DNA of 64,000 nt. Origin: Candidatus Omnitrophota bacterium (GTDB taxonomy: Bacteria > Omnitrophota > Gorgyraeia > 2-01-FULL-45-10). The translations under genes and the position numbers were made by a program. Below are positions 14,519 through 62,524 of the stretch, one piece after another. Location: the NCBI GenBank assembly GCA_020057115.1, contig JAGVGJ010000010.1, forward strand, positions 615 to 64,614, given 5' to 3'. Numbering within the stretch: position 1 is the stretch's first letter; every line of letters begins with the position of its first letter. Under the pieces are notes generated by a model. The model saw only the letters and a list, made by a program, of their open reading frames with translations. It did no database searches and was not told where the DNA came from.

Positions 14519-14546
14519 GGTCCAGGGGCCAGGGTCAAGGGTCCAG
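14518..14546 (+). repeat. GGGTCCAGGGGCCAGGGTCAAGGGTCCAG intergenic repeat, copy 1
   Basis: 29-nt element made of GGGTCCAG/GGGCCAG/GGTCAAG units. Near-identical copies at 54694-54722 and 60889-60917 and an inverted variant at 61309-61337. Confidence 0.8.
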
Positions 14547-45200: not shown

Positions 45201-48200
45201 GCCCGGGACGGAACCCGTAAAAGATAATGAAGTCATAAATATAATGCTGGACGCTTCGTCCTATATAAGGGCCTCCAGGGCCAATAGGGGCATGGATTGG
45301 ATAGCGTCAAAGGACGAACTCACTGACAGGAAAAATATGGCCGACAAGCATCCGTATATTGACATCATAGATACTTCATACAGCACGGTCGAGGAGACAG
45401 GAGCGCGCGCGCTGGGTTATATAATGGGACATATCCCTATCACAGACGGTATGGTGAGAAAAGGCGACAAGGCGTTCCGCAGGATGGTAGGCAATGTCAT
45501 TGCCGGGAATTTCGCGGAGACAGGGCTCATGGTAGCGCCTGACCTCGAGAATGTCGCGAAGATAACAGGGGCCTCATGCATGGAAGAGCTGATAGGAAGC
45601 GATAAGCCGCTCCGCGTCCTTGTCACCAATGCCGTTGTCTTGAACCAGTCCGACTTTTCTTTCGGGTTCTATTCGCATGCTCCGCCCATAATGGCAAAGA
45701 TAATCTCTTTAGTGGGCGAGGATACCTTTAATAGCACATTCCCGGAGCCGACACTTATCCTATCGGCCGAGATACTCGCCAATCCCAGTCCTCAGATCCG
45801 CCAAGAACACATCCTTCACGAGATATTCTGCCATACTAAAGGCCATTCTCCGGCTGTCTTCGAAGAGCAGAGGCTCTTCCCCGGAAATTATAGTGCCGGT
45901 ACGTTCGAAGAGCGCGGCAGTAAAAAATATATAGCAGGCTACGCCTGGAATGAGGCGATGCCTTTTGACGGCGCGTTCGGGGATGCCCTACGCCAGGTGA
46001 TCGACAAGAAGCTTGCCACGACCACGACCGGAGAATTTGCCCGGCCCAAGGGGAAGGAACATACGAAGACCAGCGCCGCCTTTATGACGGCCGATCTGAT
46101 CGCGCAGGCCGAGAAACTTAAAACGACGAGCATGCAGGAGCAGGCATGTGCTCTTATATTGAAGGCCTTGAGCATCGTCGCGGAATCAGACCAGCCTGTG
46201 CCGTACGAAAACATAGCAAATATCAGGGCTTTTATCTGGGACGAAAGATCCAGCGGGCACGTGCCGGTGAATTTCGATGTCCTGTTGCCGGTCATCGATG
46301 AATATATGAATGACTGCAACCTGACGAAATTTCGCATAAAACTGAGCGCTTTGCGCAAGCACATAGAGTCGACATATACCAATATCTTGGCGATGTATAT
46401 CTATAAACAGCTGTCTCATCTATTTTTCAATTCGCTCCCGACCATCACGAGGTTTACCATATTGATATCTTCCAGGAAATACCCGAACGATCCGTCGCTT
46501 AAAGAGATGATAGAGCTCTCAAGCGAGATGGATCGTTCCATGCGTAACCTCGGCGATGAATCGAACAGGTTAAGGAGCGTCGATTCTCTTATGAATTTTC
46601 TTACGGTATCCGATGAATCACTTTCAAGACAAAGGGCGCTCCTAGATGCGTTCAGAGCCGAGCATCCGGAGCTGCTGCGTCTCGACAGCCGCCTCAGGGG
46701 CAACATAGAAGCTATAAACGCTGAGCTCGAGAAGCTCGCGAGAGCGCGGAGCTTGCTGGCGCTTACGCTCGGTAACAAGCCTTCGCTCGAAGAGATAGCG
46801 GAGAGGGTCGATCTTGTAGTCGCCAAGATGGAGACCGGCGTTAAGACGCCGCGCATCGCATGGGTGGGCGGTCTGGTGCCATATTCCAATACTCTCTCCA
46901 CGGTGAAGGAAGGCGAGCCGGTCAAGGTAAGCATGCGTGTATATATACCGGGCTTTACTCCTCAGGAGATAGACTCAAAAACAGGTATCAAGAAATTTGC
47001 CGAAGGCTTCATAAGGGCCGAGATATGGACGAATGCCATATCTGATCCGGAGGCCAGTTCGGTGGAGGCCTTCAAACCGATAGATATGCGTTTTGACGGC
47101 GTAGGAGGGCGGGAAGGGCATGATTACATATTTACAGGCTTTATCCCTGCAAAATATGCCAGCCAGATAGACAGTAATGGCAGGCCGAAAGAATTCCGTT
47201 TTACGGCCCGAGCCGCTATAAAGAATGAGCTCGGAGGTATAGAAGGGGAATGGGCATATTCCGATAATCCGTATAAGACGAATGTCAACTGGCATGGCGA
47301 CGGAAGGATCGTCGTTCTGTCCAGGGATCCGGAAGAGGACCGCGGCAATCTGGTTGGGAGGGTCTTCAGCGATACGAACGGCAAGGATCAGGTGACTCAT
47401 AAGATATCCGGAAGGATCGAGAAGGGCTTCCTCAACAACGACTACCTCGTCCTTTACGGCGAGGATGGAAAGGTCTTATACGCTAAGGATGGCAAAGAGG
47501 CGCGTGTTAAACTTGAAAGTCCGGCCGTTAAGACAGATCTTGGCTATATTGTATACATGCTTGAGCCAAATGACCATATTCACGGTTTCGCCAGCCGCGA
47601 TAAAGTATTTATGGCAGATTTCATGTTCTATGACAGGGTCCTTTCGTATCATGAGATGAAAGAGGCATACTATAGCGTCCATCCGGATGAGGTTCCTGAA
47701 GGCATAGAACCGCACACTTATTTAAGAGGTTGCGGCAAAGGCATTAGGAACACGGCCGCTTATGCGGTACGTTACGAAAACCTTGATAAAAATTTTACCG
47801 CCGGTCAGCTTAAAACATGGATGAAAAATTCTCTGGCGCCTGAGGATAGGGGCACAGATTCCGAGATGCGGCTCATCGAACATAACGCTTCCAAGGGCAA
47901 GAAGGGCATGGAGCTTCTGTATGGTGAGCAGGACAGGGTATTCGGCCCGAAAGCCAACATGAGGGCCACGGAAAAGATATCAGGGAAGATAAAGAACAGA
48001 AATGATTATAGCCTAAGCAGGGACAAGGTCGTCCTTGTGGTAGAGTTGATGAAATTAAGGCCCGAGGCATTCCCTAACAGCATCGATGCAACCGTCAAGA
48101 TGTTGGGCGAAGGTTTTGATGTATTCAAGAAATATGATTTCCAGGGGCATACGCCTGTTGATGCGGCGCATTATCATTCGGACTACAAGAAGTGGCATGG

Positions 48201-51200
48201 AGCCTTGCTAAAGCTTATAGAATCCGATCCGTCCGTCCCGGCGCATTTTGATAGCATCTCAATGTCCTCCTTGCTTGAAGCCTTGCGCGATCAATACGGT
48301 TATATCAATGCCAAACTCAATTGGGCATGGGCTATTGAGGGCATGTGGAAAGATACGCTTGACGGTATGGAAAAGTATCCCAGAGAGAGCCAGATGGCGA
48401 GGTTCAAGGGCTTGGGCATATTTAAGCGGCACGATGATTTCATGAAGGATTATGCGGGTTCATATTATATAGAGAATGACGATGCTGTTAATAAGGCTAT
48501 GAAAGCGGTGGAAGAGACGCTAGGTTTTATAAATTCACGGGTGCCGTCGATATTTGTTAAGGACGAAAAGCCTGATGGGTCTGCTCCGGTAGCCGCCATA
48601 AAGAAGAATGCTCCACTGGGAGAACGTGCTATCAATTTTATGAAGAGCGGCAGGGCCAGCGAGATCGCCCAGTTCGTAGCGCTCGCTTTCATAATCTCTA
48701 TCGCATTATCCTGGGTTCTTCCGGCTAATTGGCTCACATTGTCTATAGCTATCATAGTTCCTATTACGCTCTTCTTCTTGTTGCCATGGACATGGAAGAC
48801 ATTGCTTGTGAATGTCGCGATAAGCGTCGTACTCTGGTATTGGCTGCCCTTGCCATGGTTCGGGCTCTCTATGGCCATTCTTACGATCGCAAACGTCGCT
48901 AAACACAACATAAAATTAAAGCCCCATCTTAAGCCTGAGGCTGTCCCTGCGGAAAGATCGGTTTTAGAGGAGAAGAAAGCCGAAAAAATATTATCCGATA
49001 TAACCATAGATAGAGAAATATTGGCCCGCATCCTGAAAGCGATAGAAGTTTCCAAAGAAGGGACCGATAAGGCCGATGCCAATGATGCGTTAAAGAAGCT
49101 CGACGATGCCGATATCATAACGCAGCTATTCGATTTCGGTTCAGGGACAAAAGGGTATGAAAAACCCGTTAAAGAAACCAAGGAGAAGCTGCGGCTCGGC
49201 GTAAGAAGGGCGTTCGATGATATCAAGGGCGGTCTCAACATAGAGTACAAGGATATGATAGAGCGCCTCAAGAACTGGAAGAATGAGAATGATGAAGCTT
49301 TAGCCGGAGCTCTCCAGGACCTGTCCCAGGAAGTCATGGATTTTATTATAAATTCGAATCATGCGGCAGACAATAAAGTCGACAGGCTTGCCGTAAGAGA
49401 GCTTATAGCCGAAGAGTGCGGGATAGATGCCGCGAGGTCAGAAACTATAAGGCTAAGGATGGCGCTGGATGTGCAGAAGGATGACGTAGCTTCAAATGAG
49501 ATGATAGGATCCGCATCAGCGAATGACCATTTCTTCCTGGCCGCTCTCCAGCTCAAATTTGGGAATTACATCAAGGCAGAGGAGAGCTTCGGACGCGCAG
49601 TAGACCTTGACCCGACCAATGCCGATTACAGGCTTGCGCTCGGGCTCGTTGAACATATATTTAGAAAATGGATGGCTGCGCGGACAGCTTATAATGCTGC
49701 TTCGAACTTCTATGATATCGAGGCCGGTGTATCGAAAGCCGCAAAGGCCAAGAAGGAACTTGCGGAATTCCTGAGGGAGAAAGCGCGCGCCGAAGCGCCT
49801 CTCATTATGGAGAAGAAAACCAACGGCAACTTGATCGGGAAACTATTCATAGACAAAGCCGCTACCGTTCAGATCAAAGAGGGCGTTATAGCCAAAGAAG
49901 AGATGGGCATCCTTAAGTTCTTCGCCCCCAATGGAGATATCCTTTATACCAAGAGCGGCGTTCCGGCGGCAGTGAAACTGACCGGCCAGATAATAAAGAC
50001 AAAGTCAGGCCACCAAATAAAGATCGTAGAGGACAATGAACATATACGCGGGTTCGCAGATAAGGATAATGCTTATCTTGCAGACTCCTTCGCAAAGAAT
50101 CCCATCGCCAAATACCATGAATTACAAGAGTCACATTACGCCGCCCACCCTGAAGAACTTCCCAAAGGCGTCAATTCCCATACCTATATAAGAGGATGCG
50201 GCAATGATGCCAGAGAAGCTTTAAGGACATCAAGAAAGAAAGATCTCCAGGATATCACCGCAGACGACCTCATCAAATACTTGAAGAAGAGGCTGCCGAA
50301 AGAAAGGCATAATGAGAATGAGTTCAACCTCATCAGATATAACGGCGAGCAAGGTAGAAAAGGGCTTGACCTTATATATGGCCTGCAGGATAGGGAATTC
50401 GGAGTAGAGGCAAATGAGCTATTCAGCGATGCGCTTATTATATTAGAGAAGCCTGAGCCTGCCGCCCAAGCTGCGCCTAAGACACAGCTAAGGACTGCTG
50501 ACGAAGTATTGTTCCGCGACTATTTTGAGGACCTGTTCGAGAAAAATATAGAAATGTTCATGCTCCTGTCGGTAAGGATGATGGGTAGCGATGCCGAAAA
50601 GAAGAGCGTTTTAAAGCGCCGGAATGCGCTCGTGCAGGAGCTTCTCGCGCTGACCGATAAATACAGGTCGCAGGATTTCGCAAAAGAGGAATACAGGAAA
50701 GTAGTCACATTTGTAAATGAAAAGATATTAAGGACTGTCGAGTTGGTAGACGGTGACAATGAACCGGCTGCTGCCTGGTGCTTGTTCGGCGCCATAAATG
50801 TGATAAGCGATACGCGCCTTGAGATGCAGGCCAAATGGCTCTCGGGAATAAAAGAACGCCGCGCCAGGATCTGGCGAAACGGCGGCATACTCACATATCC
50901 GAGAGGCGGCTATCGCATATTGGAAGGCTCGAAGCGCACTGTTATCGACCGCACGGAAGCCACGTTCAGCTCCATGTGGGAGGTTATGCGCTCGCTGTTC
51001 CATCAGGTGGACGGAGAGCTTGAAGAGAAGCGGAAAGTGTCCGGCCTGATATATGAGATAGACGGTTTCATGCTGGAGCTTTTCGACAAGAACTATGAGC
51101 TTAATGACGATGAGCGCGCCGCTATGAGCAAAAAGATCGGCCTCCTGGCAGCTTCCATGGCAAAGGAGAAAGGCGAGCTGAAGTATGAAGATAAGCGTAT

Positions 51201-54138
51201 AGCCAAACTTCTTTTGAATGCATCAGGCATGATCACGCGGCTAGGCGATCGTCACCTGAAGAGCGTCAAGGGCTTCCTTGAAATGGCGATGAGCCATCTC
51301 AGGATCAGGGAAGCGGATGCGATATCTATAGCCACTCATTGCAATAATTCCGGTCTCAACTGGGTATGGGTAGAGTCTTTAAAACGGGATTCCAGGATCA
51401 GGAACTTGGCCATTTCAGCCCTGAAGAGCATAGAAAGAAAAGACCGCAGGTCCGCGCTAGGCGCTATAAAGGGTATCACAAGATTAAATGAGATAAAGAA
51501 TGAGCCGGAATATAAGCCCATTTATAATATCCTCTGGCCTGTAGTAAAAGCCATAGAGGAAAATAAAAAGCCTCTCGAAAGCGCTATAGCCCCGCTCAAC
51601 CTCGTGTTGGAAAAATATAATAATTCGCGCCTTCTGCACAATATGCTTAGAGAATACAGGGATAAGCTTGTCGAAAAAGAGATGGCGTCGCTCGAACCTA
51701 TTGACAGGGATGCGTTCCTGAAAGATATATTTGACATGTCTGCAAAACAGAGCGACTTCCCCAAAACACCTAATCCGGTCCAGGCCCGCGCCAGATGGTG
51801 GGCAAAGCTACACCAGGCGGTGAATATACCGCTTATGATAGACGATCCTGTCAAACGCGGAGAGCGCATCCCTAATCCGGTATTTGAGGCGGCTTCGGAC
51901 TATGCGTATATCCTGGAATTCGGGAAATTGGATGAGCTGGTGAAGATGCCATTCATGCAGGCCGCTAAGCTCGGTGTGACAAGGCCGTATCTGGAGAATA
52001 TACTGAAGCGCCGGCCTTATAGCCATTTGATCCGTACGGATATGCCGAACCTTGTAGCGGCGCTATCCAAAGATTATGGCCTTGATCCTGACCAGGCAAG
52101 ACTTCTTGATGGATGTATCAGGATAGAAGAGTTTAGCGGCGCCACGCCTGCGGTTACGGCCGGGCCTCAGGTTCCTTCGATAGTTTCGCCTTTAAAGGTG
52201 CTTGATGGTATGCGGATAACAGATGAAAAGAGAGAGTCCTTCAGGCTGCGCATAGGGCGGTCGCTGAATAATAATAAATACTCGGACACCATATTCATCA
52301 CAAGAGAATCGGATGGCGAGTCGGTAGGCATGATAGAGACCATAGTGGCTGAGGATAGCAAAACCGGCTCGTGGTCGATAGAGCTTGGCCTTGCCAAGAT
52401 AAATCAAGACGTAAAAGGAACGAACTATAGGAATAGAGGCATATTCCTTAGAGTTATGAACCTCTTGGGCAAGGTCATACCCGAAGGGTCTGAGATGAGC
52501 ATAACCTCTGTCGAAGAGACCAGGACATTAAAGACCCTTGCCGGAGGAAAGAGCTGGTATCAGACCATGATGGGCAAGACATTATACAGGAGCGGCTGGA
52601 AGCTGCAGGAACTATTCATATTCGACAGGGGCAGCTCCAGTACTTATGTCTCTTTCGACAGGCTGGAGAAATGGAAAAGCGATTTTCCTGTAGATAAGGG
52701 CGGTTTTCAAAGCGCGCTCGCTCAGGCGATAAAGGATATCGACAAGACCGATGCGATAGATGATGCTACCGTAGGCGCGGTGTTATCTAAGATAGATAGG
52801 AGCGCAGTGGCTGAGGGCAAGGCCCGTATTGTGCAGCAAGCCGATAAAGGCATTCCTTCCGACAAACAACTTGTATGGATAAACATCCATGGTTTCGTTG
52901 ACCAGGCCAAAGGGCCTTTAGAGAAGAGGATACGGGAATCGATCGCAAAACAAGGTCTTATAAAGAATATACATGATGTCAGCTTGGGAGTGCTTCCCGA
53001 TGAAGTGCGTTCGCACGTGAAGAGCGTATTGGAAGACGAGGCCAAGCCTGTAAGCAATATAGTGCTATCGGGACATTTCTTTGCTACGATCTCGGAATAC
53101 CCCGGATGTATCGAGAGCGCGATACGGGGCGTCTGTGATGCGCTTGGGACCAGCGGCTATAGGATCATCCTGCCGCTCGACCTGATAGATAATAGCGATG
53201 AGACGGTCACGCCCGCCGATCTGGTATTTCTTTTGGGATTCACCCAGTTAGATAAAGAGAATAGCCTCGTATATATAGATGATGCTCCTGTGGCCAAATG
53301 GAGCGAGGCCAAGGCGGATAAAGGCGCTCCTGTCGAGGTCAGGTTATATACCACAAGTGAAAAGATGAAGGCGTATCTTGAAAAGAACGATGTCTCTGCG
53401 GGATCTTCGCGTGCGCCGGAGAGCAAAACATTGCCGGTGCCGAAAGAATCTCCCGAAATATTGTTCGCCAGATTTATGTCGAAGGCGGATATGATAAAAT
53501 ATTCCGCAGGCCAGGCGCTCGAAGGGTTTAGGCCGGGAGAATTCATAAAAGAGAAGGGCCTGATACTTTACGCCGACAGCATCCTTGAACATGGCGCTGT
53601 TGCAGAACTTGAAGATGCCTTGAAGAATACAGGGATATTTAATGAGATGAACATAGTGGTATATGGAAAGAAGCCCGGCATGGCCTGGCTCCTTGAAAAG
53701 ATAATAAGAGGGGCGAATAGCACAGTCAATGTAATAACCGTAAGCGAGGCAGATCTTATAGAAAAGTCCGGCACCAAAGAGATATACATAGATGAGACAA
53801 AGGAGCTTGATTCTATAATCAAATATGCCGGAGCCAAGGGGATAAATAACGGGAACCTCCTCGGCGTCATAAAGGGCTCTACGGCAGCCGCAAGCATAGG
53901 GAAGATAAGAGAGCTCTTAAGCGAGCGCAAGGTCCCGGTCGTCTCATTCGAATCCGCTGATGGCGTATACTCATTTGCAGCGGCCATCGGCATATTAGCA
54001 AAGTTAAAGAATAACATCGACCCGAAGATGAACAACTACTTCGCGGTACTTCCTCCGATAAAGAAGCTTTCGATAGAGTTGGACAGGACCTACCGGGAAT
54101 ACAGGGAAGCGCTCAAGAAGCTCCTCTCAAGCGCCTAA
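39244..54138 (+). CDS. giant multidomain membrane-associated signalling protein (4,964 aa). Domains: N-terminal TM, PAS, GGDEF-like, 2x [novel HExxCHxKGH domain - HATPase_c - cytidylate-kinase-like] supermodules plus a third novel-domain copy, 2x a second novel domain, an internal 3-TM cluster, TPR-like region.
   Basis: Uninterrupted 14,895-nt reading frame (apparent TTG start). A hydrophobic N-terminal anchor and two to three TM helices lie at 39880-40075. PAS spans about 40110-40500. The GGDEF-type domain spans about 40540-41010, with RAGDKGDEF at 40759-40785. Large internal repeats with about 2.2 kb periodicity lie at 41050-46000. HATPase_c N/G1/G2 boxes (ELLKNA...DYGKGM...GSGYGL and ELVKNA...DHGKGI...GTGYGL) lie at about 42150-42480 and 44350-44690. 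Cmk-like domains (CGRRGSGRST...GLRYVNSGFILRAV and SGLRGSGRTV...GLRYINPRFMMRAM) lie at about 42524-43120 and 44735-45300. Three TM helices lie at 48655-48900. Confidence 0.85.
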   Translation: MKTNRQIKKFPLFIRIIATILLVTFLVQDIAWAHPDPFTKDPSRHATLAPEPMFDHPEDKVTAISTLLQSKIESHGVFKGNVSLTAVEHILDLEDISKWCDENKIAISTEHTFTGKPTEIRLVMPHGRVLRYYDPNIKTHENKDTAARGTVVRINANLSKQAIESNDFYKKNSQVGTTSTHVDLQAAIRKEKSSAHISPFQKVHPSLYERISNYGLIAVSAGLILAYWLIDTIAYMYVFSDSDVLSALMPSDPYRYFTRAVTACMIFLFGSVIQFFVNRNKKRSIALSERNHMFFQVFMDMGVAAHRLDISGNILDVNTKWCEWMGYKREEVIDRPIFDFIDPEHRGNARDRLLGRIRGFTEVEIPQRTGDRRYIRKDGTAILSDTFHTILKDRFGRPIEILTQFRDITEQRSMEKELEKSLKELKLVSDTDKLTGAYSRNFWDRQFNAILEAFSRTKIPISAIMCDLDDFKIVNDTHGHATGDEVLKEYARVMLADRRKTDFVIRAGDKGDEFIIILFNTDAKGASIAANRILENLATDHNVLSPDGKPISIRASMGVAQFREGQTKEDLVKAADEALYIAKQSGKSKVVVTAPSSALSEGDASPESKMAFKRVVENIRTKPRKYSDITISEKFISNMAEIRNRLRKLGIEDILGDLRDLRVLTTDAVVLGHGDFSVGFYSKAEDDKNNLISVLGEDGFNKLFPRPTLVLPREMFDEYDELIQQDYILHRIICHSKGHHTSMFIQQAVYPENYNYGAYEEEAGKKYMPGCKGDPSKPFKGRTGEAIQNIINAITKDPITTVIMHDLKNKIQGGYVLDLVLNKYKKDGSALSEDLLMLKKYRDMMGSMGKTTLSFYANGANETEAITALSDMLPELKKMTTAIKLKLRYGAFDYDMEDKEKIAIVIKNSEEGVVPGINTAINMLGRSPEEIDVGRFIEDIISRAKSIFIIPENTRVDLSIPSEVRRLSGILTYKLILKLTLEELLKNASVDGQANRIKVSVSATSEGELKVMVRDYGKGMSEESLKRLFMPGNAAVEDKRYGSGYGLAVLKEAIDSVGGTIIYDNKVTDGPSFTFTLPLDAPLDKLKRRALKEPLMVAMCGRRGSGRSTVGRMIAATFGLRYVNSGFILRAVLYKLIEAKKRGSPVDLGDPKAVGAFAQDFFEKKRIDYSKEPVGIDGVDSASILVDGLSLRDKIKMLISNKEFTDGQSNEEWMHRVAGYKTVDEALENFIRTLAVETKAYGKYNGIIRMASDPVKNEDIINIMLDAPTYIRAKRSNTPIEEIEKLDSATGRKSMTGRYARVDMMIDTAHLTVRQAAIQAIRYIDARVLSKEAADGFISQGDAAFTRMAENIASGKVVDATHDPRIVLDIERLKNRLGLRSIDDLMGAGSAVRILVTNDVVINEKDFALGLYSESPAVKARLIQVMGEEKFKLAFPRPTLVLTTEVLLNKDENIRQEYIYHEAICHAKGHYEAILAQQKVFPKNYTGDCEEGANGLKYVRGFAGVKDKPFKGRLGSALTATIKMATDPIIREVLHDLNSKFSTAGGFALYSVLKRYSEEEIEADKRLKLLKEYCALTLELRNACIGYLSGEATMSDVMDIFNEHLKRFTSLTSSITERFNNNEYNDTERSKNGMKVLVEYSGVSINLMNRAMNWIGRSMDSVDVEGYLANIIGSYRASLKESATHGNKYVEINDAKISPEARRLKDIFTYKEVLRMTIEELVKNALKYSGTDSIDIEASLTKDGDLEFKVIDHGKGIPADTLKKLFTPGFTEAKDSRIGTGYGLVSLKDAIGSVGGSINVESKVGEGTTFIFTLPANGEIGALNRPKLYDPIIVAVSGLRGSGRTVVSRWIASRLGLRYINPRFMMRAMVATLLEARKNGRAIDLKDGDAVAAFAEEFFGKRRLDYSVEPVKLDGVDTSVPDEKDGLSLRDKIKTEIDDGITDGEPNTTILDNIAHYKGVQAALEKFIKSIASEVRASGKYNGVIRPGTEPVKDNEVINIMLDASSYIRASRANRGMDWIASKDELTDRKNMADKHPYIDIIDTSYSTVEETGARALGYIMGHIPITDGMVRKGDKAFRRMVGNVIAGNFAETGLMVAPDLENVAKITGASCMEELIGSDKPLRVLVTNAVVLNQSDFSFGFYSHAPPIMAKIISLVGEDTFNSTFPEPTLILSAEILANPSPQIRQEHILHEIFCHTKGHSPAVFEEQRLFPGNYSAGTFEERGSKKYIAGYAWNEAMPFDGAFGDALRQVIDKKLATTTTGEFARPKGKEHTKTSAAFMTADLIAQAEKLKTTSMQEQACALILKALSIVAESDQPVPYENIANIRAFIWDERSSGHVPVNFDVLLPVIDEYMNDCNLTKFRIKLSALRKHIESTYTNILAMYIYKQLSHLFFNSLPTITRFTILISSRKYPNDPSLKEMIELSSEMDRSMRNLGDESNRLRSVDSLMNFLTVSDESLSRQRALLDAFRAEHPELLRLDSRLRGNIEAINAELEKLARARSLLALTLGNKPSLEEIAERVDLVVAKMETGVKTPRIAWVGGLVPYSNTLSTVKEGEPVKVSMRVYIPGFTPQEIDSKTGIKKFAEGFIRAEIWTNAISDPEASSVEAFKPIDMRFDGVGGREGHDYIFTGFIPAKYASQIDSNGRPKEFRFTARAAIKNELGGIEGEWAYSDNPYKTNVNWHGDGRIVVLSRDPEEDRGNLVGRVFSDTNGKDQVTHKISGRIEKGFLNNDYLVLYGEDGKVLYAKDGKEARVKLESPAVKTDLGYIVYMLEPNDHIHGFASRDKVFMADFMFYDRVLSYHEMKEAYYSVHPDEVPEGIEPHTYLRGCGKGIRNTAAYAVRYENLDKNFTAGQLKTWMKNSLAPEDRGTDSEMRLIEHNASKGKKGMELLYGEQDRVFGPKANMRATEKISGKIKNRNDYSLSRDKVVLVVELMKLRPEAFPNSIDATVKMLGEGFDVFKKYDFQGHTPVDAAHYHSDYKKWHGALLKLIESDPSVPAHFDSISMSSLLEALRDQYGYINAKLNWAWAIEGMWKDTLDGMEKYPRESQMARFKGLGIFKRHDDFMKDYAGSYYIENDDAVNKAMKAVEETLGFINSRVPSIFVKDEKPDGSAPVAAIKKNAPLGERAINFMKSGRASEIAQFVALAFIISIALSWVLPANWLTLSIAIIVPITLFFLLPWTWKTLLVNVAISVVLWYWLPLPWFGLSMAILTIANVAKHNIKLKPHLKPEAVPAERSVLEEKKAEKILSDITIDREILARILKAIEVSKEGTDKADANDALKKLDDADIITQLFDFGSGTKGYEKPVKETKEKLRLGVRRAFDDIKGGLNIEYKDMIERLKNWKNENDEALAGALQDLSQEVMDFIINSNHAADNKVDRLAVRELIAEECGIDAARSETIRLRMALDVQKDDVASNEMIGSASANDHFFLAALQLKFGNYIKAEESFGRAVDLDPTNADYRLALGLVEHIFRKWMAARTAYNAASNFYDIEAGVSKAAKAKKELAEFLREKARAEAPLIMEKKTNGNLIGKLFIDKAATVQIKEGVIAKEEMGILKFFAPNGDILYTKSGVPAAVKLTGQIIKTKSGHQIKIVEDNEHIRGFADKDNAYLADSFAKNPIAKYHELQESHYAAHPEELPKGVNSHTYIRGCGNDAREALRTSRKKDLQDITADDLIKYLKKRLPKERHNENEFNLIRYNGEQGRKGLDLIYGLQDREFGVEANELFSDALIILEKPEPAAQAAPKTQLRTADEVLFRDYFEDLFEKNIEMFMLLSVRMMGSDAEKKSVLKRRNALVQELLALTDKYRSQDFAKEEYRKVVTFVNEKILRTVELVDGDNEPAAAWCLFGAINVISDTRLEMQAKWLSGIKERRARIWRNGGILTYPRGGYRILEGSKRTVIDRTEATFSSMWEVMRSLFHQVDGELEEKRKVSGLIYEIDGFMLELFDKNYELNDDERAAMSKKIGLLAASMAKEKGELKYEDKRIAKLLLNASGMITRLGDRHLKSVKGFLEMAMSHLRIREADAISIATHCNNSGLNWVWVESLKRDSRIRNLAISALKSIERKDRRSALGAIKGITRLNEIKNEPEYKPIYNILWPVVKAIEENKKPLESAIAPLNLVLEKYNNSRLLHNMLREYRDKLVEKEMASLEPIDRDAFLKDIFDMSAKQSDFPKTPNPVQARARWWAKLHQAVNIPLMIDDPVKRGERIPNPVFEAASDYAYILEFGKLDELVKMPFMQAAKLGVTRPYLENILKRRPYSHLIRTDMPNLVAALSKDYGLDPDQARLLDGCIRIEEFSGATPAVTAGPQVPSIVSPLKVLDGMRITDEKRESFRLRIGRSLNNNKYSDTIFITRESDGESVGMIETIVAEDSKTGSWSIELGLAKINQDVKGTNYRNRGIFLRVMNLLGKVIPEGSEMSITSVEETRTLKTLAGGKSWYQTMMGKTLYRSGWKLQELFIFDRGSSSTYVSFDRLEKWKSDFPVDKGGFQSALAQAIKDIDKTDAIDDATVGAVLSKIDRSAVAEGKARIVQQADKGIPSDKQLVWINIHGFVDQAKGPLEKRIRESIAKQGLIKNIHDVSLGVLPDEVRSHVKSVLEDEAKPVSNIVLSGHFFATISEYPGCIESAIRGVCDALGTSGYRIILPLDLIDNSDETVTPADLVFLLGFTQLDKENSLVYIDDAPVAKWSEAKADKGAPVEVRLYTTSEKMKAYLEKNDVSAGSSRAPESKTLPVPKESPEILFARFMSKADMIKYSAGQALEGFRPGEFIKEKGLILYADSILEHGAVAELEDALKNTGIFNEMNIVVYGKKPGMAWLLEKIIRGANSTVNVITVSEADLIEKSGTKEIYIDETKELDSIIKYAGAKGINNGNLLGVIKGSTAAASIGKIRELLSERKVPVVSFESADGVYSFAAAIGILAKLKNNIDPKMNNYFAVLPPIKKLSIELDRTYREYREALKKLLSSA

Positions 54139-54687
54139 TAATTTTGCTTCATGCAGTTTTGTGTATATCGAGCCTTTAGGGGTAAGCGTGCTCTTAAATA
54201 AGACGATCTCATTTATCTTGCAGCTTACAGCTGATAGCTTATAGCTTAACATCTTTTCTTTCAGCTTCTCTTTATTTTTTGGAGAGCGGACCCTTCCTAT
54301 CGTAAGATGAGCGGCGAATGACCTCGTCTCTTTCTCGAATCCCAGCTTAGACAGCGCCTCATCTACTTTTTCTGCAATTATTTTCAATTCACCGGCGCCT
54401 TTATCGATGCCGCCCCAGACGACTCTCGGATATTCAATTTTAGGAAATGCGCCCAGGTCTTTGATCGTAGTTTCGAAGGGTCTTGTCCCGGAGGCTATGT
54501 TATCAAGAATAGCTTTTATTTCTTCGACCTTCTTCTCATCCACCTCGCCTAAAAATTTCAGAGTAAGGTGGATATTATCCTTCTCGACCCATTTCACATC
54601 AGCTCCGGAATATTTAAGGTGGGCCTCTGCCTGGGCGAGGGATTCTTTGATCTCTTCGGAAAAATCTATGGCGATGAAAATGCGCAT
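54127..54687 (-). CDS. thpR: RNA 2',3'-cyclic phosphodiesterase (2H / LigT-ThpR family)
   Basis: 186 aa. Two HxT/S motifs (HLTLKF and HLTIGR) spaced about 80 residues apart, typical of 2H phosphoesterases. The 3' end overlaps the giant ORF stop by 12 nt (convergent). Confidence 0.8.
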   Translation of the reverse strand: MRIFIAIDFSEEIKESLAQAEAHLKYSGADVKWVEKDNIHLTLKFLGEVDEKKVEEIKAILDNIASGTRPFETTIKDLGAFPKIEYPRVVWGGIDKGAGELKIIAEKVDEALSKLGFEKETRSFAAHLTIGRVRSPKNKEKLKEKMLSYKLSAVSCKINEIVLFKSTLTPKGSIYTKLHEAKLLGA

Positions 54688-54693
54688 AATTTA

Positions 54694-54722
54694 GGGTCCA
54701 GAGGCCAGGGTCAAGGGTCCAG
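54694..54722 (+). repeat. GGGTCCAGAGGCCAGGGTCAAGGGTCCAG intergenic repeat, copy 2
   Basis: 28/29 identity to the copy at 14518-14546. Sits in the 52-bp gap between thpR and cinA. Confidence 0.8.
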
Positions 54723-56261: not shown

Positions 56262-58741
56262 ATGAATATGAAAAAACTAACCATAGCGTTAATGATCCTC
56301 GCGGCGATCGGCATATTTGGATGCCTGTCGACCGCCTATGCCGAAAATAACACATGGGATGGTTCTGAATCTAATCTATGGAGTGCCCAGGCAACTGGAG
56401 CCTGGGTCATGATCCTAACCATGCCGGCTATGGCGGTGAAGTTGCCAGCCTAACATCATCTTATTCAGATCCGGTCCTTAACATGACTACCCCCGCACTC
56501 TCCGGCCTTACTATAGATTCAACGAACCTTACGGCGTCGGCAAGCGGTTTTACGCTCAACGTAGGAAGCGCCTCTTCATCCGCCAATATGATACTTAATA
56601 ACACGGCAGACACGCAAATGAATATTGGCAGTTCGGACTCTAGTTACAACTTTACCACGAAGGTATATGGCAACCTTACCGCAAATGATGACAAGATCAC
56701 CGTGTACAGCACTATAGACTTGATCACAGCTCCAAATAGTATTGAATTCAGGAACCCCGGCGGAGCGATATTTAAAAATGTAATTATGGAATTTAATGGC
56801 GGCAATACTAGTCGCATCGTTACCATGTATAACAATACCACGATAGATGGGAATCTGACCCTGCGGAATAATTTCTCAGGGAACGGAGGCATTAGTCTTA
56901 TGGGCTACGGCTCCCCGATCGTGGCAGTTATCGGTAATTTCGACATGCCATATTCAAGCGCCAACGCTGGTTTTAACAGATTCGGAGACGGCGGGCATAA
57001 TTTAAATTTTAGGTTAGGCGGTAACCTAACCGTGGGGGAGTATTATTCCGCAGCCCCTACCACCGAGATACTATTAGATGATATCACTTTCAATGGGACT
57101 GGCAACCAGGCGGTGAATATTACGCCAAACAATAGCATCGTCGGCACAAACCAGAAATCCGTATTCATCGTTAATAAAGATAGCGGCGCTGTGGCTTATG
57201 AGACAGGCAGCTATGCTCAAAAATATCTGCCCTGGTATATTAATAAAGGAGAGCTGGCCGGCACTATTGCGTCCGGCACTATAACGTCCGGAGCTATAAC
57301 TGCATATAATCATTTTGCCGCAACAACAGACGCGGTATTTAGCGGATCGTTATCGTCCAATCCGTCAACCGTAACATTAGATCCTATTTACTCAAATATA
57401 GAAGTTGATAATCCGAGCTCTACGGGGTTCACAAGGGTCGCATCGTTGCTTGGAGCAGATTATAAAGCCCCGGGCGGTGAGCATTTTAATGATCTTACGC
57501 TAATCACAGGGGCTGTTGGTTCCGGAGCTGGAGTTGGTCATGTCGCTTTTTACGGAAACGCAAGCACTAGCGATATCGATCTTTACGTAGACGGAACATT
57601 TAAGGTAGACAGGCCTGCCGGAGCCACGAATACCCTGTATGTCGATGGGTCAGCTAATAAACCGACGCTTCAGGTCTATGACGCCGTTTTTACAGGCACA
57701 AGCGGGACTTTTTCTGTAGGATCTGCATATGGCATGGACATAAATATAAGTAATGATTTTACGTTGAGTTATGCCAATGGTTCTATTAACAACACCACTT
57801 TAAAGTTTAACGGCGCTGACGAACAATTGTTTACATATACGGCGGGCACTATTCACGCTACTTCCTCGTTGGTGGTAGACAAACCGTCAGGCACGCTTAA
57901 ATTTATGAGTGATAATAAGACGAGCAATGCCTCGCTCACGGTTTCAAGCGGCACACTCGATCCTAACGGTAATACATTTACCGTCTATCAAAAAAATATC
58001 TCTATAGGAGCTGACGGCGTGATCCAGGGTAAAGGTACTATCGGTATTACGCAAGATGTTCCAAAGTCTTATACCTTCACCAATAACGGCAAGGTCATAG
58101 CCGATGGCGGCGGGGCTGACAGCACGCTAACCATCAACACTACGGGCGCGATCAAAAACACTTTTGATAATACCGGAGATTCCGGATGGTATGCTTTGAA
58201 TAAGGGCATGCTCGCGCTGCCCGGCCAGAGCATTACTACCGGATCGAATAAGACCGTCTATTGGGGTGAAGAGGCTGATGCCGATGCATTGCCTGATATG
58301 GTCAATAGCGCCAAGCTTACCTTTAACAATGTAAGTTCGGTAGGTACTTTCAGCATCAACCTTATGGCTTCGGATAGAAGCGATATCGAGGTCTCTCTGG
58401 ATAATCAAGCCTATGCGAGTTATTGGGATGTCAATTTTACCGGCGCCTTCAATTATGTTGACATGATATTTAAATATGACGATTCTATGGTTCAATCCCT
58501 TGGTATTGAGGAATCGACGCTGAAGTTCTACCACTTTACCGGTGGGGAATGGGTCGATGTCACCACACAGCTTGATACCGAAAATAATCTCCTCTATGCG
58601 TCTAATGTTACTTCGTTCAGCGATTTCAGCGCGCAAGGTAACATTACAGCCAATGTCCCCGAGCCCGCAACGATGGTGAGCTTATTGAGCGGACTGGCGA
58701 TGATAGGTTTCAGGAGAGTGCATAGATCAGGTAAGAAATAA
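56262..58741 (+). CDS. PEP-CTERM sorting-signal surface protein 1, with an apparent frameshift between signal peptide and body
   Basis: C-terminus VPEPATMVSLLSGLAMIGFRRVHRSGKK is a PEP-CTERM motif followed by a TM helix and Arg cluster. The Ser/Thr/Asn/Gly-rich body reads in one frame from 56378. A canonical signal peptide (MNMKKLTIALMILAAIGIFGCLSTAYA, SD AGGAG upstream) is encoded 56262-56350 in a different frame that terminates at 56453. Confidence 0.6.
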
Positions 58742-58801: not shown

Positions 58802-60445
58802 ATGAAAGCAAAATTGATGACGAGATGTTTGATCCTTACGATTGCAATAATCGCGTCTTTCGCGTTTACTACCGGTGCTCATGCGACCGATTTCACTGGG
58901 AATAATTCCAATGTCTCGAATATAAGCGAGGGCAACTTTTATGATACCAGCACTAATCTCTATCCAAACGGTAGAGTGACTACGGGTAATTTCTACAATT
59001 CGAGCAAGAATTACGGCACTGTCACGACCGGCATCTTCAACAATACCAGCTATAATTTAGCGACCGCCTCATTTAGGGGTACCGTTGGTACTGCCACATT
59101 TAATGGCGGAGCTAGTATAGCCCTTTCCAGTTACAACTTAGGCGACGTCACCAATGGCACATTCAATGCGTACAGCCGCAATACGGCGAACGGTGCTATC
59201 AGAGGTAATGTGGGCACCGGCATATTCAATGATAATAGCTACAACGCAGCCGACGTCACGAACGGCACATTCAATGAGGATAGCAGGAATTCCGGTATCG
59301 TTACCACGGGCACATTCACCGGCTATAGTTATAATGCTAGCAGCGGTACCGTAGGTACCGCCACGTTCCATGATTGTAGCGCGAACGAAGGCACCGTTAC
59401 CGGTACTGCGAAATACATGTACGCGGATGGAGGCCTTATTACTATAGGTAATGGCATGTACTGGGGCAGCGGATCGGCAGGATCTAATGTTGATCAGGAT
59501 GATAGCGCTATTACACAGTGGGTATTCACCGGGGATGATCCTTATGCGGCGGGCTACAATGACGGCGATCTCGAAGGGGCCACATTCAATGGTTATAGCT
59601 ACCACAACATGGGCGTTGTAACTACTGCAACATTCAATGACGATAGTTATAACTGGAATGAAGTCGTAAATGCCACATTCAATGATAACAGCTTCAATGC
59701 TTATGACGAATGGGGTATCGTCACCAATGCCACATTCAATGACAATAGCTACAACGCAGTCGGCGGCGAGATTGAGAATGCCACATTCACCGGTACAAAT
59801 GTCAATGACGGCGCCATCACCGGCACCACGACGATATCGGCCGGCGCGACGCTTAGCGGTACCGGCACGCTCGGCACCTTGATACAAGGATCAGGTACGA
59901 TCTCCAGCATGGATGTTGTTATAGGAGACGGCGTTATGATGTCTCCGGGCTCTAGCCCCGGCATCTTAACAATAAGCGATGGCACGCTTACTTGGGAAGG
60001 TGGCGGAACAGTGGTGTTCCAGATATATGACACCTCATTAGAGGCCGGAACAGGATGGGACCTGATAAGATTGACAAATGGGGCTTTGCTTGATATTACA
60101 GCTACTTCAGATGATAAGTTCAACATAATATTTGAAGGTCTGTCAGGATTACCTGATACATTGGGGCAGCCATTGAACTTTAACCCCGCGCAGAACTACA
60201 GCTGGCTATTTGTAGATAGCTCTGATGGTTTAATATCAGGATTTAACTTAAATAAATTCAATATTACGTATAGAGGATTTACGGATCTGGCAGGTGGTGG
60301 TTTTACATTGGAAGAGGGGAGTATTAGGACCAAGTTCGAAATAGGGGCAAGCCCGGTCCCCGAACCGGCGACGATGGTGAGCATATTGAGCGGACTGGCG
60401 ATGATGGGTTTCAGGAGAGTGCGTAGATTGGGGAAGAAGAGATAA
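58802..60445 (+). CDS. PEP-CTERM sorting-signal surface protein 2 with about 20-aa G-x-V-T-x-G-T-F-N-x-x-S-x-N repeats
   Basis: Signal peptide MKAKLMTRCLILTIAIIASFAFTTGAHA. At least 12 tandem TFN/FN-containing repeats. C-terminus PVPEPATMVSILSGLAMMGFRRVRRLGKKR is nearly identical to that of the upstream gene. Confidence 0.8.
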   Translation: MKAKLMTRCLILTIAIIASFAFTTGAHATDFTGNNSNVSNISEGNFYDTSTNLYPNGRVTTGNFYNSSKNYGTVTTGIFNNTSYNLATASFRGTVGTATFNGGASIALSSYNLGDVTNGTFNAYSRNTANGAIRGNVGTGIFNDNSYNAADVTNGTFNEDSRNSGIVTTGTFTGYSYNASSGTVGTATFHDCSANEGTVTGTAKYMYADGGLITIGNGMYWGSGSAGSNVDQDDSAITQWVFTGDDPYAAGYNDGDLEGATFNGYSYHNMGVVTTATFNDDSYNWNEVVNATFNDNSFNAYDEWGIVTNATFNDNSYNAVGGEIENATFTGTNVNDGAITGTTTISAGATLSGTGTLGTLIQGSGTISSMDVVIGDGVMMSPGSSPGILTISDGTLTWEGGGTVVFQIYDTSLEAGTGWDLIRLTNGALLDITATSDDKFNIIFEGLSGLPDTLGQPLNFNPAQNYSWLFVDSSDGLISGFNLNKFNITYRGFTDLAGGGFTLEEGSIRTKFEIGASPVPEPATMVSILSGLAMMGFRRVRRLGKKR

Positions 60446-60514: not shown

Positions 60515-60840
60515 TAGGAAGAGAGAAAAACTGAAATCGTTCTTTATGAAGTACTTGGCTACCCATCCGAAAGGGTGTCCGCCTAAAACGGCGGAGCGGC
60601 TAATGCAAGCGAAGATGCCGTGGACATCCCGACGAAGAAATAGTAGACGGGATGGCGAAGGCGCGAGATAGCGCAGATTCGTCGCAAAGCTATAGGGCCT
60701 AATACCGCAGGATATCCGAACCTAAGGACAAGATATCCGCCAACGGTGATGGCAGCCAGTTGCCGTTCGCGTTAACGTATAACGCGAACACGGGATTACT
60801 CCAAGCCCGCTTATGAAAACATAGGCGGGCTTTTTATTTT
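60515..60840 (+). ncRNA. candidate stand-alone structured small RNA (element R2, about 300 nt) ending in an intrinsic terminator. Paralog of R1.
   Basis: Multiple hairpins (CCGCC-TAAAA-CGGCGG, ATCCCG...CGGGAT, GCGCGAGATAGCGC, GGATATCC...GGATATCC, CGCGTTAACGTATAACGCG). Conserved blocks GTCGCAAAGCTATAGGGCCTAATACC (60681-60706) and ATGGCAGCCAGTTGCCGT (60749-60766). Both R1 and R2 begin near a shared GTTCTTT motif. Confidence 0.4.
60804..60840 (+). terminator. rho-independent terminator (GCCCGCTTATG-AAAA-CATAGGCGGGC followed by TTTTTATTTT)
   Basis: 11-bp stem with one G-U pair, a 4-nt loop and a 10-nt T-rich tail. Confidence 0.7.
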
Positions 60841-60888
60841 AAAATAGTTTGCAACAATTTGGGGGTTTTGAGCGTCTTATATAGTAGG

Positions 60889-60917
60889 GGGTCCAGGGGC
60901 CAGGGTCAAGGGTCCAG
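60889..60917 (+). repeat. GGGTCCAGGGGCCAGGGTCAAGGGTCCAG repeat, copy 3 (left flank of the four-helix-bundle gene)
   Basis: Identical to the 14518-14546 copy. 40 nt upstream of the four-helix-bundle gene start. Confidence 0.8.
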
Positions 60918-60956
60918 GGTGAATAATCCGGAATAAAACAAAAAGAAGGGGTAGAA

Positions 60957-61334
60957 ATGAGCGAAGGCTTTAAAAATTTAATAGTATGGCATAAAGCATA
61001 CGAATTAACGTTGGAAATATACAAAATGACTGCAAGATATCCAAAGCACGAACAATATGGATTGGTTTCGCAGATCAGAAGAGCGGCTATATCGGTTAAT
61101 GGCAATATCGCTGAAGGATATGAGAGGCGCCACAGAAGAGAATATATCCAATTTTTGAATATGGCGAAAGGATCCCTGGGAGAGGTGGAAGCCTATCTCT
61201 TGTTTTCGCAAGACCTAGGATATATAAGCATGGAACTCTACCGCGATGTGGACCTAAAACGAAAGGAGGTGGGTAAATTGTTAACAGGACTCCTGCGTTC
61301 ATTATGTTCTGGACCCCGGACCCTGGCCCCTTGA
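60957..61334 (+). CDS. four-helix-bundle protein of the 23S rRNA intervening-sequence protein family (TIGR02436-like, Avd-like fold)
   Basis: 125 aa. LIVWHKAYELTLEIYKMTARYPKHEQYGLVSQIRRAAISVNGNIAEGYERRHRREYIQFLNMAKGSLGEVEAYLLFSQDLGYI matches the family consensus (VWQKA..L...IY..T..FPK.E.YGL.SQ.RRAA.S...NIAEG..R.....F..FL..A.GS..E). SD GAAGGGG upstream. The last 9 codons run into the flanking repeat. Confidence 0.8.
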   Translation: MSEGFKNLIVWHKAYELTLEIYKMTARYPKHEQYGLVSQIRRAAISVNGNIAEGYERRHRREYIQFLNMAKGSLGEVEAYLLFSQDLGYISMELYRDVDLKRKEVGKLLTGLLRSLCSGPRTLAP

Positions 61335-61337
61335 CCC
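61309..61337 (-). repeat. inverted, unit-shuffled copy of the GGGTCCAG/GGGCCAG/GGTCAAG repeat (right flank of the four-helix-bundle gene)
   Basis: Plus-strand reads CTGGACCCCGGACCCTGGCCCCTTGACCC. Its reverse complement is GGGTCAAGGGGCCAGGGTCCGGGGTCCAG, built from the same units as the other copies. Confidence 0.7.
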
Positions 61338-61352
61338 TTCGTGAATTTGACT

Positions 61353-61382
61353 TTACAACAAGGAGGTGATAAATGTATAATA
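61353..61382 (+). promoter_or_regulatory. promoter candidate upstream of recA (TTACAA - 18 nt - TGtATAATA extended -10)
   Basis: TG at 61374-61375 and ATAATA at 61377-61382 (TGTATAAT overall), with a weak -35 TTACAA at 61353-61358. Lies 66 nt upstream of the recA ATG, which has a GGAGAAG SD. Confidence 0.3.
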
Positions 61383-61447
61383 TTTTACTCAAGTAGCATA
61401 ATTATGATATAAAATATAATGTAATATAACCTATAAGGAGAAGCTAA

Positions 61448-62524
61448 ATGTCGTTTAAAACAAAAACCGTTGATAAGGAAGATGTTAAGAAGAGAGAAGT
61501 GACGGAGAAGAAAGACCTTTCTATAGAACAGAAGGTGAAGGCCCTTGATCTGGCCGTAGAACATATCGAGAAGCAATTCGGAAAGGGCGCCATAATGAAG
61601 CTCGGGCAGGATTTTAAGGTAGACATACCGGCCATATCTACCGGGTCTGTCACGATAGACCTGGCTTTGGGCGTAGGCGGAGTGCCGCGCGGCAGGGTCG
61701 TAGAGATATTCGGGCCGGAATCGAGCGGAAAGACGACGCTAACCTTGAGCATAATTGCGCAGGCGCAGAAGCTGGGCGGCCAGGCGGCATTTATTGACGC
61801 TGAGCACGCATTTGACGCCGCGTATGCCAAGAAGATCGGAGTCAATCTCGACAATCTCCTCATGTCCCAGCCTGATACCGGCGAACAGGCGCTTGACATA
61901 GCCGAGACGCTCGTAAAATCCAGCGCCATCGACGTTCTCGTAATAGACTCTGTCGCGGCTCTGACGCCGAAGGCGGAGATAGATGGGGAGATCGGCGCTT
62001 CGCATGTGGGTTTACAGGCGCGTCTCATGAGCCACGCCCTAAGAAAACTCTCCGGTTCCATATCAAAATCGAAGACATGCGTCATATTCATCAACCAGAT
62101 AAGGGAGAAGATAGGCGTCATGTTCGGGAACCCTGAAACGACTCCGGGTGGAAGGGCGCTAAAGTTCTACGCCTCCGTCAGGATAGACCTAAGGCGCATC
62201 GCGTCGCTCAAGAAGGGCGAAGAGGCTGTCGGCAACCGCGTCCGCGCATCGATAGTGAAAAATAAAGTAGCGCCGCCGTTCAGGAAAGCCGAGTTCGACA
62301 TAATGTTCGACGAAGGCATTTCCAGGGCGGGAAGCATTCTTGATATGGCGGAAACTCTCGCTATTATCTCAAAGAGCGGCACATGGCTCACTTACGGCGA
62401 AGATAAGCTCGGCCAGGGCAAGGAGAATGCAAGGGTGTATCTGAAAGAGAACCCGAAGATCCTTGAAAAACTGGAAAAAGAGATAAGGAATAAGGGCGAT
62501 GTCGCAGTATCCGTTAAAGAATAA
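61448..62524 (+). CDS. recA: recombinase RecA
   Basis: 358 aa. [12 protein letters not shown], Walker [10 protein letters not shown], and L1/L2 loop regions all canonical. Confidence 0.95.

Follow-up and report, generated by a model that had tools for sequence, protein, structure and literature searches.

The window analysed here is a stretch of 64,000 nucleotides of contig JAGVGJ010000010.1 from a Candidatus Omnitrophota bacterium, and it carries a small gene for a four-helix-bundle protein (60957-61334, + strand; 125 amino acids, pI 9.4) that is bracketed by two inverted arrays of tandem heptamers. A PEP-CTERM gene and its terminator precede this cassette and recA follows it, so that it does not lie inside a 23S rRNA gene. 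Its 5' arm (60889-60923, +) consists of the heptamers GGGTCCA GGGGCCA GGGTCAA GGGTCCA followed by a degenerate fifth unit, GGGTGAA. The arm is G-rich on the coding strand, and its four-unit core stops 39 nt ahead of the start codon. The 3' arm (61309-61337, − strand) is an inverted array that reads GGGTCAA GGGGCCA GGGTCCG GGGTCCA on the − strand and is complementary to the 5' arm at 26 of 29 positions. Rather than following the gene, this arm is part of it, as it codes for the final nine residues (CSGPRTLAP) and the stop codon.

The repeat that builds both arms, GGGTCCAGGGGCCAGGGTCAAGGGTCCAG, spans 29 nt, is made of four tandem heptamers of the form GGGKCMR, and was located at 14518-14546 (+, 0 mismatches), 54694-54722 (+, one mismatch), 60889-60917 (+, 0 mismatches), and 61309-61337 (−, three mismatches). 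An earlier note on this DNA, made from its letters alone, had listed these four copies, and all of them were confirmed, with a chance expectation of 0.00 in 100 dinucleotide-preserving shuffles. Its description of a gene framed by inverted copies, one of them with shuffled units, also proved correct: the inverted copy at 61309-61337 has the unit order TCAA-GCCA-TCCG-TCCA, compared to TCCA-GCCA-TCAA-TCCA in the copy at 60889. The three copies on the + strand, which lie 6-46 kb apart in the window, have a constant unit order and are the same at 28-29 of 29 positions. Because similarity of the window copies beyond the array is weak and A-rich, the repeat is essentially the array itself. A period-7 scan of the whole 64 kb returned those four sites and one unrelated array, and shuffled sequences gave none.

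The two copies away from the cassette are solo arrays, and neither has an inverted partner within 600 nt. The array at 14518-14546 (+), identical to the 5' arm at 29/29 positions, lies between the genes for a metallo-beta-lactamase (MBL) hydrolase and xerD; it overlaps the MBL-hydrolase stop codon by one base and ends 18 nt before the xerD start. The array at 54694-54722 (+, 28/29) is found within the 52-nt spacer of cinA and thpR, 6 nt from the thpR start codon, and is C-rich in the flanking transcript because both genes are on the − strand. These neighbours had been named correctly in the earlier note (MBL hydrolase and xerD; thpR, a LigT-type gene, and cinA). The second period-7 array (54217-54249; AGCTTGC AGCTTAC AGCTGAT AGCTTAT AGCTTAA) is unrelated to GGGKCMR, lies inside the thpR coding region (residues 147-157, LSYKLSAVSCK) without an inverted partner within 600 nt, and could be an in-frame array or chance.

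The framed protein matched PF05635 with 128 bits (cut-off 33.8) and TIGR02436 with 119.9 bits (cut-off 24), in line with its earlier assignment to the four-helix-bundle proteins of 23S rRNA intervening sequences (IVS; 'S23p'). These were the sole matches above cut-off, and two Pfam matches below cut-off were at chance level. The core motif of PF05635, S..NIAEG ... GS..E, is present, and residues S46, N50, I51, A52, E53, G54, S73, and E76 are invariant in an alignment of 15 diverse members. The protein matched no transposase family even at E ≤ 10 and no nuclease or recombinase family, and an identity as a HEPN or defence protein was ruled out, with no matches in Pfam (E ≤ 10) or PADLOC. Its closest solved relative is XCC0516 (PDB 2GSC, E = 5e-19), with five chains, and 5 chains were deposited in each of the structures 2GSC and 2RLD. 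PMC4990558, citing Lin 2006, describes the S23p of X. campestris as a homopentameric toroid, and, judging from its sequence, the framed protein probably belongs to this family of homopentameric rings. The earlier statement that the window contains neither rRNA nor a reverse transcriptase holds for rRNA across the whole window, where Rfam found none and one tRNA only; for reverse transcriptase it holds for the six genes tested around the cassette, the only part of the window that this search covered.

The closest homologues of the framed protein carry the name Candidatus Omnitrophica and include two orthologues, P0002 in locus L001 (71% identity) and P0005 in loci L002-L006 (65% identity). Both share the gene order of the window, with a giant open reading frame (ORF), thpR and cinA in reverse orientation, the four-helix-bundle gene, recA and recX in forward orientation, then alaS and hisD. 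In addition, both orthologous loci carry a heptamer array in the 5' untranslated region, preceded by the conserved block, and an inverted array in the final codons, which in these loci encodes the C-terminal tails GPWVLASGP and GSWALATGP. The unit flavour varies by genome, as GTAGCCA and GAAGCCA units are present in the orthologous loci and not in the window. Beside the arms of the window cassette (TATAGTAGG ... TTCGTGAAT), there is no direct repeat that could represent a target-site duplication. Since synteny and arms are kept at 65-71% identity and no target-site duplication is seen, the cassette is old, fixed upstream of recA, and not recently mobilised. The earlier note had pictured a minimal cassette, with a mobilisation site among its options, and recent mobilisation was not borne out: the target-site duplications it suggested looking for are not visible at the cassette, and the comparison of relatives placed the cassette, together with its flanking copies, at the same site in diverged genomes, so that the framing itself holds; orthologous loci with the gene but lacking these copies would, by the note's own criterion, have spoken against it. 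Contig L001 carries four arrays in 5.5 kb, one of them in the recA/recX spacer. Another array on this contig (L001:3011-3038) lies in frame inside alaS, where it codes for GSRSQGPGSR in a variable stretch before the conserved IADHIRA motif, resembling the in-frame insertions of Rickettsia palindromic elements. An 867-amino-acid ORF of the window, considered as alaS for dating this in-frame array, is not an alanyl-tRNA synthetase.

The same layout was found far beyond this lineage. Flanks of 42 PF05635 loci were called arrays if a 28-nt window had a period-7 self-identity of at least 76%, with 985 background windows from the same 42 loci as controls. Period-7 arrays were present in 52 of 84 flanks compared to 22 of 985 controls (odds ratio 71, Fisher p = 2.5e-48). 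Counted per locus, 30 of the 42 had an array on one or both sides and 22 on both, and periods other than 7 were rare at these flanks. The sample includes 17 further distinct loci from 18 viral-contig matches, which gave the same picture. Of the 24 first-collected loci, 17 had two arms whose mutual complementarity exceeded the 95th percentile of pairs formed between different loci. An alignment was made of 20 loci with inverted arms. These analyses show a PF05635 gene between inverted arrays of 4-5 heptamer units in Omnitrophota, Cyanobacteria, Xanthomonadales, Bacteroidota, and a true 23S IVS, with a unit sequence that varies between loci, yet with both arms of one locus matching each other.

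On plasmids, the arms consist of GGGTGTA (Calothrix), AGTCAGR (Trichormus and two Nostoc, where the 3' arm again falls within the ORF end), AGGGAAG (Geminocystis), AGGGCAG (Stanieria), GGTGACA (Anabaena 90), or GGTTYAA (Riemerella) units, and the PF05635 genes are typically wedged between co-directional genes such as cas10/cmr3, cas6/cas4, or conjugation genes. Wedged genes were seen at L255:1495-1851, L256:992-1351, L259:992-1360, and L265:3001-3330, and their operon sites include cas10-cmr3 (Picosynechococcus), cas6-cas4 (Pseudanabaena, Anabaena 90), and accB-accC (Xanthomonas species). Adjacency to cas genes may account for the statistical 'cas association' of the PF05635 family. On contig L247, from an Omnitrophica metagenome-assembled genome, two PF05635 paralogues 5 kb apart occupy tight spacers between efflux-pump genes, and their arms differ (GGGGCAA/GGGTCAA versus GAAACCA type). 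A further pair of arrays on this contig encloses no ORF; the two are separated by about 300 nt, and three heptamer flavours occur together in one 490-nt spacer (L247:6228-6718). At L248:9900-10480 and in L259, cassettes are nested, and the outer arms (GTCAC type in L248) do not share their unit type with the inner ones (GGGKCAA type in L248). The nested cassettes and the mixed-flavour spacer suggest that array elements have inserted into one another. As in the window, arrays also supply C-terminal tails of ORFs, namely of the upstream ACR_tran ORF in L247 and of the four-helix-bundle genes in L251, L252, and L257.

Locus L262 (Azospirillum) lies inside a bacterial large-subunit rRNA gene (1707 bits) and is a genuine helix-45-type 23S rRNA IVS, and its arms are made of ACAGAGG/ACGGATG heptamers. 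A similar arrangement has been noted for the Coxiella IVS, in which three to four tandem GACAGAT heptamers precede the S23p ORF and the inverted-repeat stem is cut by RNase III (PMC4990558). The tie to rRNA intervening sequences drawn in the earlier note was thus well founded, as an ORF between inverted heptamer arrays is also the layout of a true 23S IVS. Like the ORF-bearing 23S IVS of Leptospira, Coxiella, Brucella, Xanthomonas, and Azospirillum, the window cassette has a sense ORF of the PF05635 family between long-stem inverted repeats, and it shares arms of tandem heptamers with L262 and Coxiella. Unlike these, it is intergenic upstream of recA with its own conserved upstream block, its 3' arm is translated as a protein tail, and its arm sequence also occurs solo elsewhere in the window. 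Beyond the Coxiella remark (PMC4990558), we found no link between PF05635 and dispersed heptamer arrays in the literature, of which our coverage was incomplete, so that a prior description is possible.

A second lineage with arms of dispersed type is Xanthomonas. Orthologues of XCC0516 lie between accB and accC in several Xanthomonas species, with GGGAATC GGGAGTG GAGAATC GGGAATC upstream and an inverted array downstream. For Xanthomonas campestris pv. campestris, 186 GGGAATC arrays have been catalogued, mostly of four units and 89% intergenic, among them 70 convergent pairs; both array orientations are transcribed, and GGGAATC arrays form G-quadruplexes (G4) in vitro (Rehm 2015, PMC4692102). 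XCC0516 and S23p are not mentioned in that paper. Because the arms of the XCC0516 orthologues are these catalogued arrays, there are two very distant lineages in which a PF05635 gene lies between inverted copies of the genome's own dispersed repeat.

Dispersed heptanucleotide arrays are also found in cyanobacteria as short tandemly repeated repetitive (STRR) sequences. Further arrays described are GGGAATC in Xanthomonas and GGGGAYT in Nostoc (Rehm 2015, PMC4692102), as well as TAACTGA upstream of start codons in Beggiatoaceae, for which MacGregor proposed an unknown RNA-binding regulator (PMC4679880). The window arrays resemble them in having tandem 7-nt units, typically 3-5, in a mostly intergenic position between co-directional genes, in occurring as solos and convergent pairs, and in being G-rich with G4 potential; they differ in that GGGKCMR is a new unit sequence in a new, Omnitrophota-like host lineage and that arrays here form the arms of a PF05635 gene.

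To see how common such arrays are, we scanned metagenome contigs with a pattern matching all four window copies and obtained at least 120 matches, compared to about 15 expected by chance according to our own estimate, on contigs of 38-74% G+C. Among the 120 matches listed, three have a PF05635 gene, and all three show the geometry of the window, in that the gene is preceded by an array that is G-rich on the coding strand and has an inverted one at its 3' end. Arrays mostly have 3-5 units, and lengths of 3-4 predominate. The remaining arrays are solos in short spacers or convergent pairs of about 80 nt, which form hairpins with loops of roughly 18-27 nt (L146, L157, L174, L198). In a crude test, 36 of 47 clear arrays were at ORF boundaries. 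A scan of genome contigs for three GGGKCMR units followed by GGG likewise gave at least 120 matches, in unrelated taxa (Nostoc, Streptomyces, Planctomycetes), and L007 alone, among the matches listed, has a PF05635 gene near its array. Overall, metagenome arrays of GGGKCMR type are abundant and mostly away from PF05635 genes. Their adjacent genes are functionally diverse (L24, methionyl-tRNA synthetase, an Iso_dh-family dehydrogenase, an ABC permease, a hydrolase). The idea of a repair and recombination regulon comprising xerD, cinA/thpR, and recA was rejected since arrays elsewhere precede unrelated genes, and the shared operator that the earlier note had offered among its options was not supported as that of a specific regulon. 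A repetitive extragenic palindromic (REP)-like element, another of these options, came close to the mark.

Taken together, the architecture shown is that of a free-standing, fixed IVS-type PF05635 cassette whose arms belong to the genome's dispersed heptamer family; the explanation built on it, to which we give an even chance overall, adds an RNA stem and a partnership of protein and repeat. In a fold of the RNA from 60880-61350, the minimum free energy and centroid structures both pair the two arms (z = −4.66). The purine-rich 5' arm would pair with the pyrimidine-rich 3' arm of the transcript, and the resulting stem, imperfect and about 29 bp long, would enclose the entire mRNA. By analogy with rRNA IVS, this stem may serve as an RNase III-type processing and insulating element, a step that we consider more probable than not. 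More tentatively, and as a possibility rather than a probability, the basic protein of pentameric family could recognise tandem heptamers, roughly one unit per subunit, and might bind its own message or DNA first, then solo and paired arrays across the genome. Gene and dispersed repeat would then represent a vertically inherited partnership, formally like that of REP-associated tyrosine transposases (RAYTs) and REPINs. Across phyla, no property of the arms is better conserved than their 7-nt period, which a stem would not need, and a ring that reads tandem units is the simplest reading. A broader and more doubtful proposal would see in PF05635 homopentamers the partners so far missing for dispersed heptanucleotide repeats (STRR, GGGAATC, GGGKCMR) in many phyla, with the gene between arrays as 'master copy', the other arrays as targets or progeny, and the 23S IVS as a special case. 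The architecture suggests that family and scattered heptamers may act together.

Several observations weigh against this explanation. Mismatches between arms comprise 21 sense-compatible and 15 antisense-compatible changes and 39 transversions, without the G-U bias that would point to selection for an RNA stem. A purely RNA-binding model is strained, as the copy at 54694 is antisense to its flanking genes and both array orientations were transcribed in the study of Rehm 2015. Among the 42 PF05635 loci, 12 have no clear array, L258 and L261 are flanked by an array on a single side, and L254, L255, and L264 show 8-nt periods. L256 is an exception in that about 15 AAAGCTA units upstream and about 10 AAAGCCA units downstream (870-1500) are unusually long arrays in direct orientation. 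The locus sample is biased, with plasmid matches that are mostly cyanobacterial and two loci that were found via the array itself. In addition, 117 of the 120 metagenome matches listed have no PF05635 gene in the locus, so that the protein-repeat partnership, if real, would act in trans, and the proposed link between the two comes from architecture and conservation. The earlier note had taken abundant copies away from this gene family as the sign of a generic element, which applies in part: the repeat is indeed a generic dispersed heptamer array, while PF05635 genes are very strongly enriched for array bracketing.

Could the arms serve as an RNA stem only? In that case, they would form an RNase III-type stem that excises or insulates a selfish ORF, the function of the protein would be unrelated, and solo arrays and short hairpins would be relics or slippage by-products. 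The predicted closure of the mRNA by the stem, the RNase III excision documented for the Coxiella IVS (PMC4990558), the ORF-less forms (the short hairpins of L146, L157, L174, and L198 and the array pair of L247), and the usual co-orientation of cassettes with the host operon all agree with this explanation. We nevertheless regard it as rather unlikely, because any complementary sequence would make a stem, leaving the tandem 7-nt arms in nearly every lineage unexplained, as well as the preserved unit order of the three distant + copies of the window; neither the lack of a G-U bias nor the direct orientation of the L256 arrays fits it. Clearly less likely still is a generic dispersed REP-like or simple-sequence repeat unrelated to the gene, with PF05635 genes merely landing in, or being retained at, array hairpins. 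While the scarcity of PF05635 genes near the metagenome arrays with their diverse neighbours, the arrays of Xanthomonas, Nostoc, and Beggiatoaceae known without a reported gene partner, and the nested arms of L248 and L259, which look like insertions into a pre-existing hairpin, speak for such a repeat, the enrichment at PF05635 flanks is extreme. Moreover, where the ORF has entered 23S rRNA, it has brought along its arms, which are foreign to the host sequence; paralogues sharing a contig differ in arm type; and the arrangement is conserved in orthologues.

Little weight can be given to the remaining explanations. G-rich arrays that fold as G4 in DNA or RNA and modulate transcription or translation would suit the window copies, with five G3 tracts and 4-nt loops, and the G4 formed in vitro by GGGAATC arrays, most often of four units (PMC4692102). 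However, the orthologous arms in L001 and L002 have three G3 tracts only, arms elsewhere are not G-rich (AGTCAGA, AAAGCTA, GGTTCAA, CGTTACA, GAAACCA), and the 54694 copy has one tract broken (GAG). Since four G-tracts are missing from the orthologous arms and from those of most other lineages, G4 formation was rejected as a general principle, and we consider it very unlikely as the explanation here. A shade less probable again is present-day mobility as a DNA transposon or an integron-like cassette, in which the arrays would be terminal inverted repeats or sites of recombination. It would account for the inverted terminal arms, for the tight wedging in operons of many genomes (cas10/cmr3, cas6/cas4, accB/accC, ACR_tran/ACR_tran), and for the in-frame array in alaS of L001, but not for synteny kept at 65-71% protein identity and likewise across Xanthomonas species, the missing target-site duplication, the lack of a consistently adjoining transposase or integrase, or a protein without a match to nuclease and recombinase families. 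Finally, the earlier note had raised an Avd accessory protein of a diversity-generating retroelement. A weak likeness exists (PF22296, 7e-8; PHROG 'Avd protein of DGR', 5.5e-13), but scores remain below the cut-off of NF033474 (40.1 versus 80) and the gathering threshold of PF22296 (33.3 versus 40). The two genes on each side, which include those for a PEP-CTERM protein, RecA, and an HtrA-like protease, contain no reverse transcriptase domain, leaving this identity with practically no credence.

If the cassette is instead of the favoured IVS type with a partnership of protein and repeat, it has formal counterparts among known systems. RAYT genes and REPINs have reportedly been studied by Bertels and Rainey. 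As in REP/REPIN-RAYT systems (PMC3116915), inverted copies of a genome-dispersed repeat enclose a gene of vertical descent in the window lineage and in Xanthomonas, the repeat variant is lineage-specific, and both hairpin doublets and singlets are present. In contrast, the gene encodes no HUH tyrosine transposase but a small, non-enzymatic-looking four-helix bundle that is probably pentameric, tandem heptamers take the place of an imperfect palindrome in the repeat, and a mobility mechanism is not evident. With bAvd of diversity-generating retroelements, which acts on nucleic acid with a partner, the protein shares a homologous, basic, probably pentameric four-helix bundle; unlike bAvd, it scores below the family cut-offs and has no reverse transcriptase in the flanking genes tested, and we know of no heptamer arms at Avd genes. 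In TRAP, 11 subunits read 11 G/UAG triplets, and HutP reads UAG every 7 nt. The window system would resemble both in combining a homo-oligomeric ring with evenly spaced repeats of equal-order count in the 5' region of a transcript, and the 7-nt spacing is shared with HutP sites. There is no homology to either protein, binding in the window-type system is inferred only, and its arrays are also found antisense and downstream of genes.

The surroundings of the cassette contain further candidate signals. The conserved upstream block (60846-60888, +; AATARTTTGCAAYAATTT ... CGTCTTATATAGT), which precedes the 5' arm in both orthologous loci as well, has a TATA(G/T)T-like hexamer, a few bases after which the array starts. 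The block may be a promoter or an operator for the cassette; a simple sigma-70 scan calls no promoter in it. Directly after the 3' arm follows a recA promoter-like site (61352-61381, +; TTTACA-N18-TATAAT, 11/12) that is kept in the orthologous loci, an indication that recA (61448-62524) could be transcribed without read-through from the cassette. Between this site and the recA start, a perfect palindrome, CATAATTATG (61397-61406, +), is conserved in L001, where it is ATATAATTATAAT-like, and in L002, and is a candidate SOS/LexA-type operator of the lineage. Upstream of the cassette, a near-threshold match to the cyclic di-GMP-I riboswitch aptamer (60644-60767, +; 34.1 bits versus a gathering score of 35, E = 3e-5), full-length to the model with a 36-nt insertion, is followed by a strong intrinsic terminator (60803-60832, +; 13-bp stem and T-run). 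Both elements lie between the PEP-CTERM gene and the cassette, and read-through would reach the four-helix-bundle gene and recA. The interval from cinA to the cassette is occupied by genes for a 787-amino-acid protein without Pfam match (56378-58741, +) and for the PEP-CTERM protein of 547 amino acids (58802-60445, +). Both are missing there in relatives whose gene order spans this interval (including L002-L004), and together with the riboswitch-like element they look like a lineage-specific insertion. A single ORF of 4964 amino acids (39244-54138, +) has a counterpart in a giant gene (2583+ amino acids) at the same place relative to thpR/cinA on a relative's contig, and giant ORFs fit an Omnitrophota origin.

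S23p/IVS four-helix-bundle proteins have been reported since the early 1990s, crystal structures are available, and some genomes carry dozens of copies. The element described here combines known kinds, namely an IVS-type cassette outside rRNA with arms that are a dispersed heptamer repeat. It thereby joins two old puzzles, the role of S23p/IVS proteins and the purpose and spread of dispersed heptamer repeats in cyanobacteria, xanthomonads, and others, given that, across phyla, heptamer repeats enclose PF05635 genes both inside and outside rRNA, and that in two distant lineages these repeats are the ones dispersed in the genome itself. The array layout also accounts for annotation oddities, such as array-coded C-terminal tails on PF05635 and neighbouring ORFs and small genes inside cas, acc, and efflux operons. 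The hypothesis that a pentameric ring of this family would read 4-5 heptamers is directly testable.

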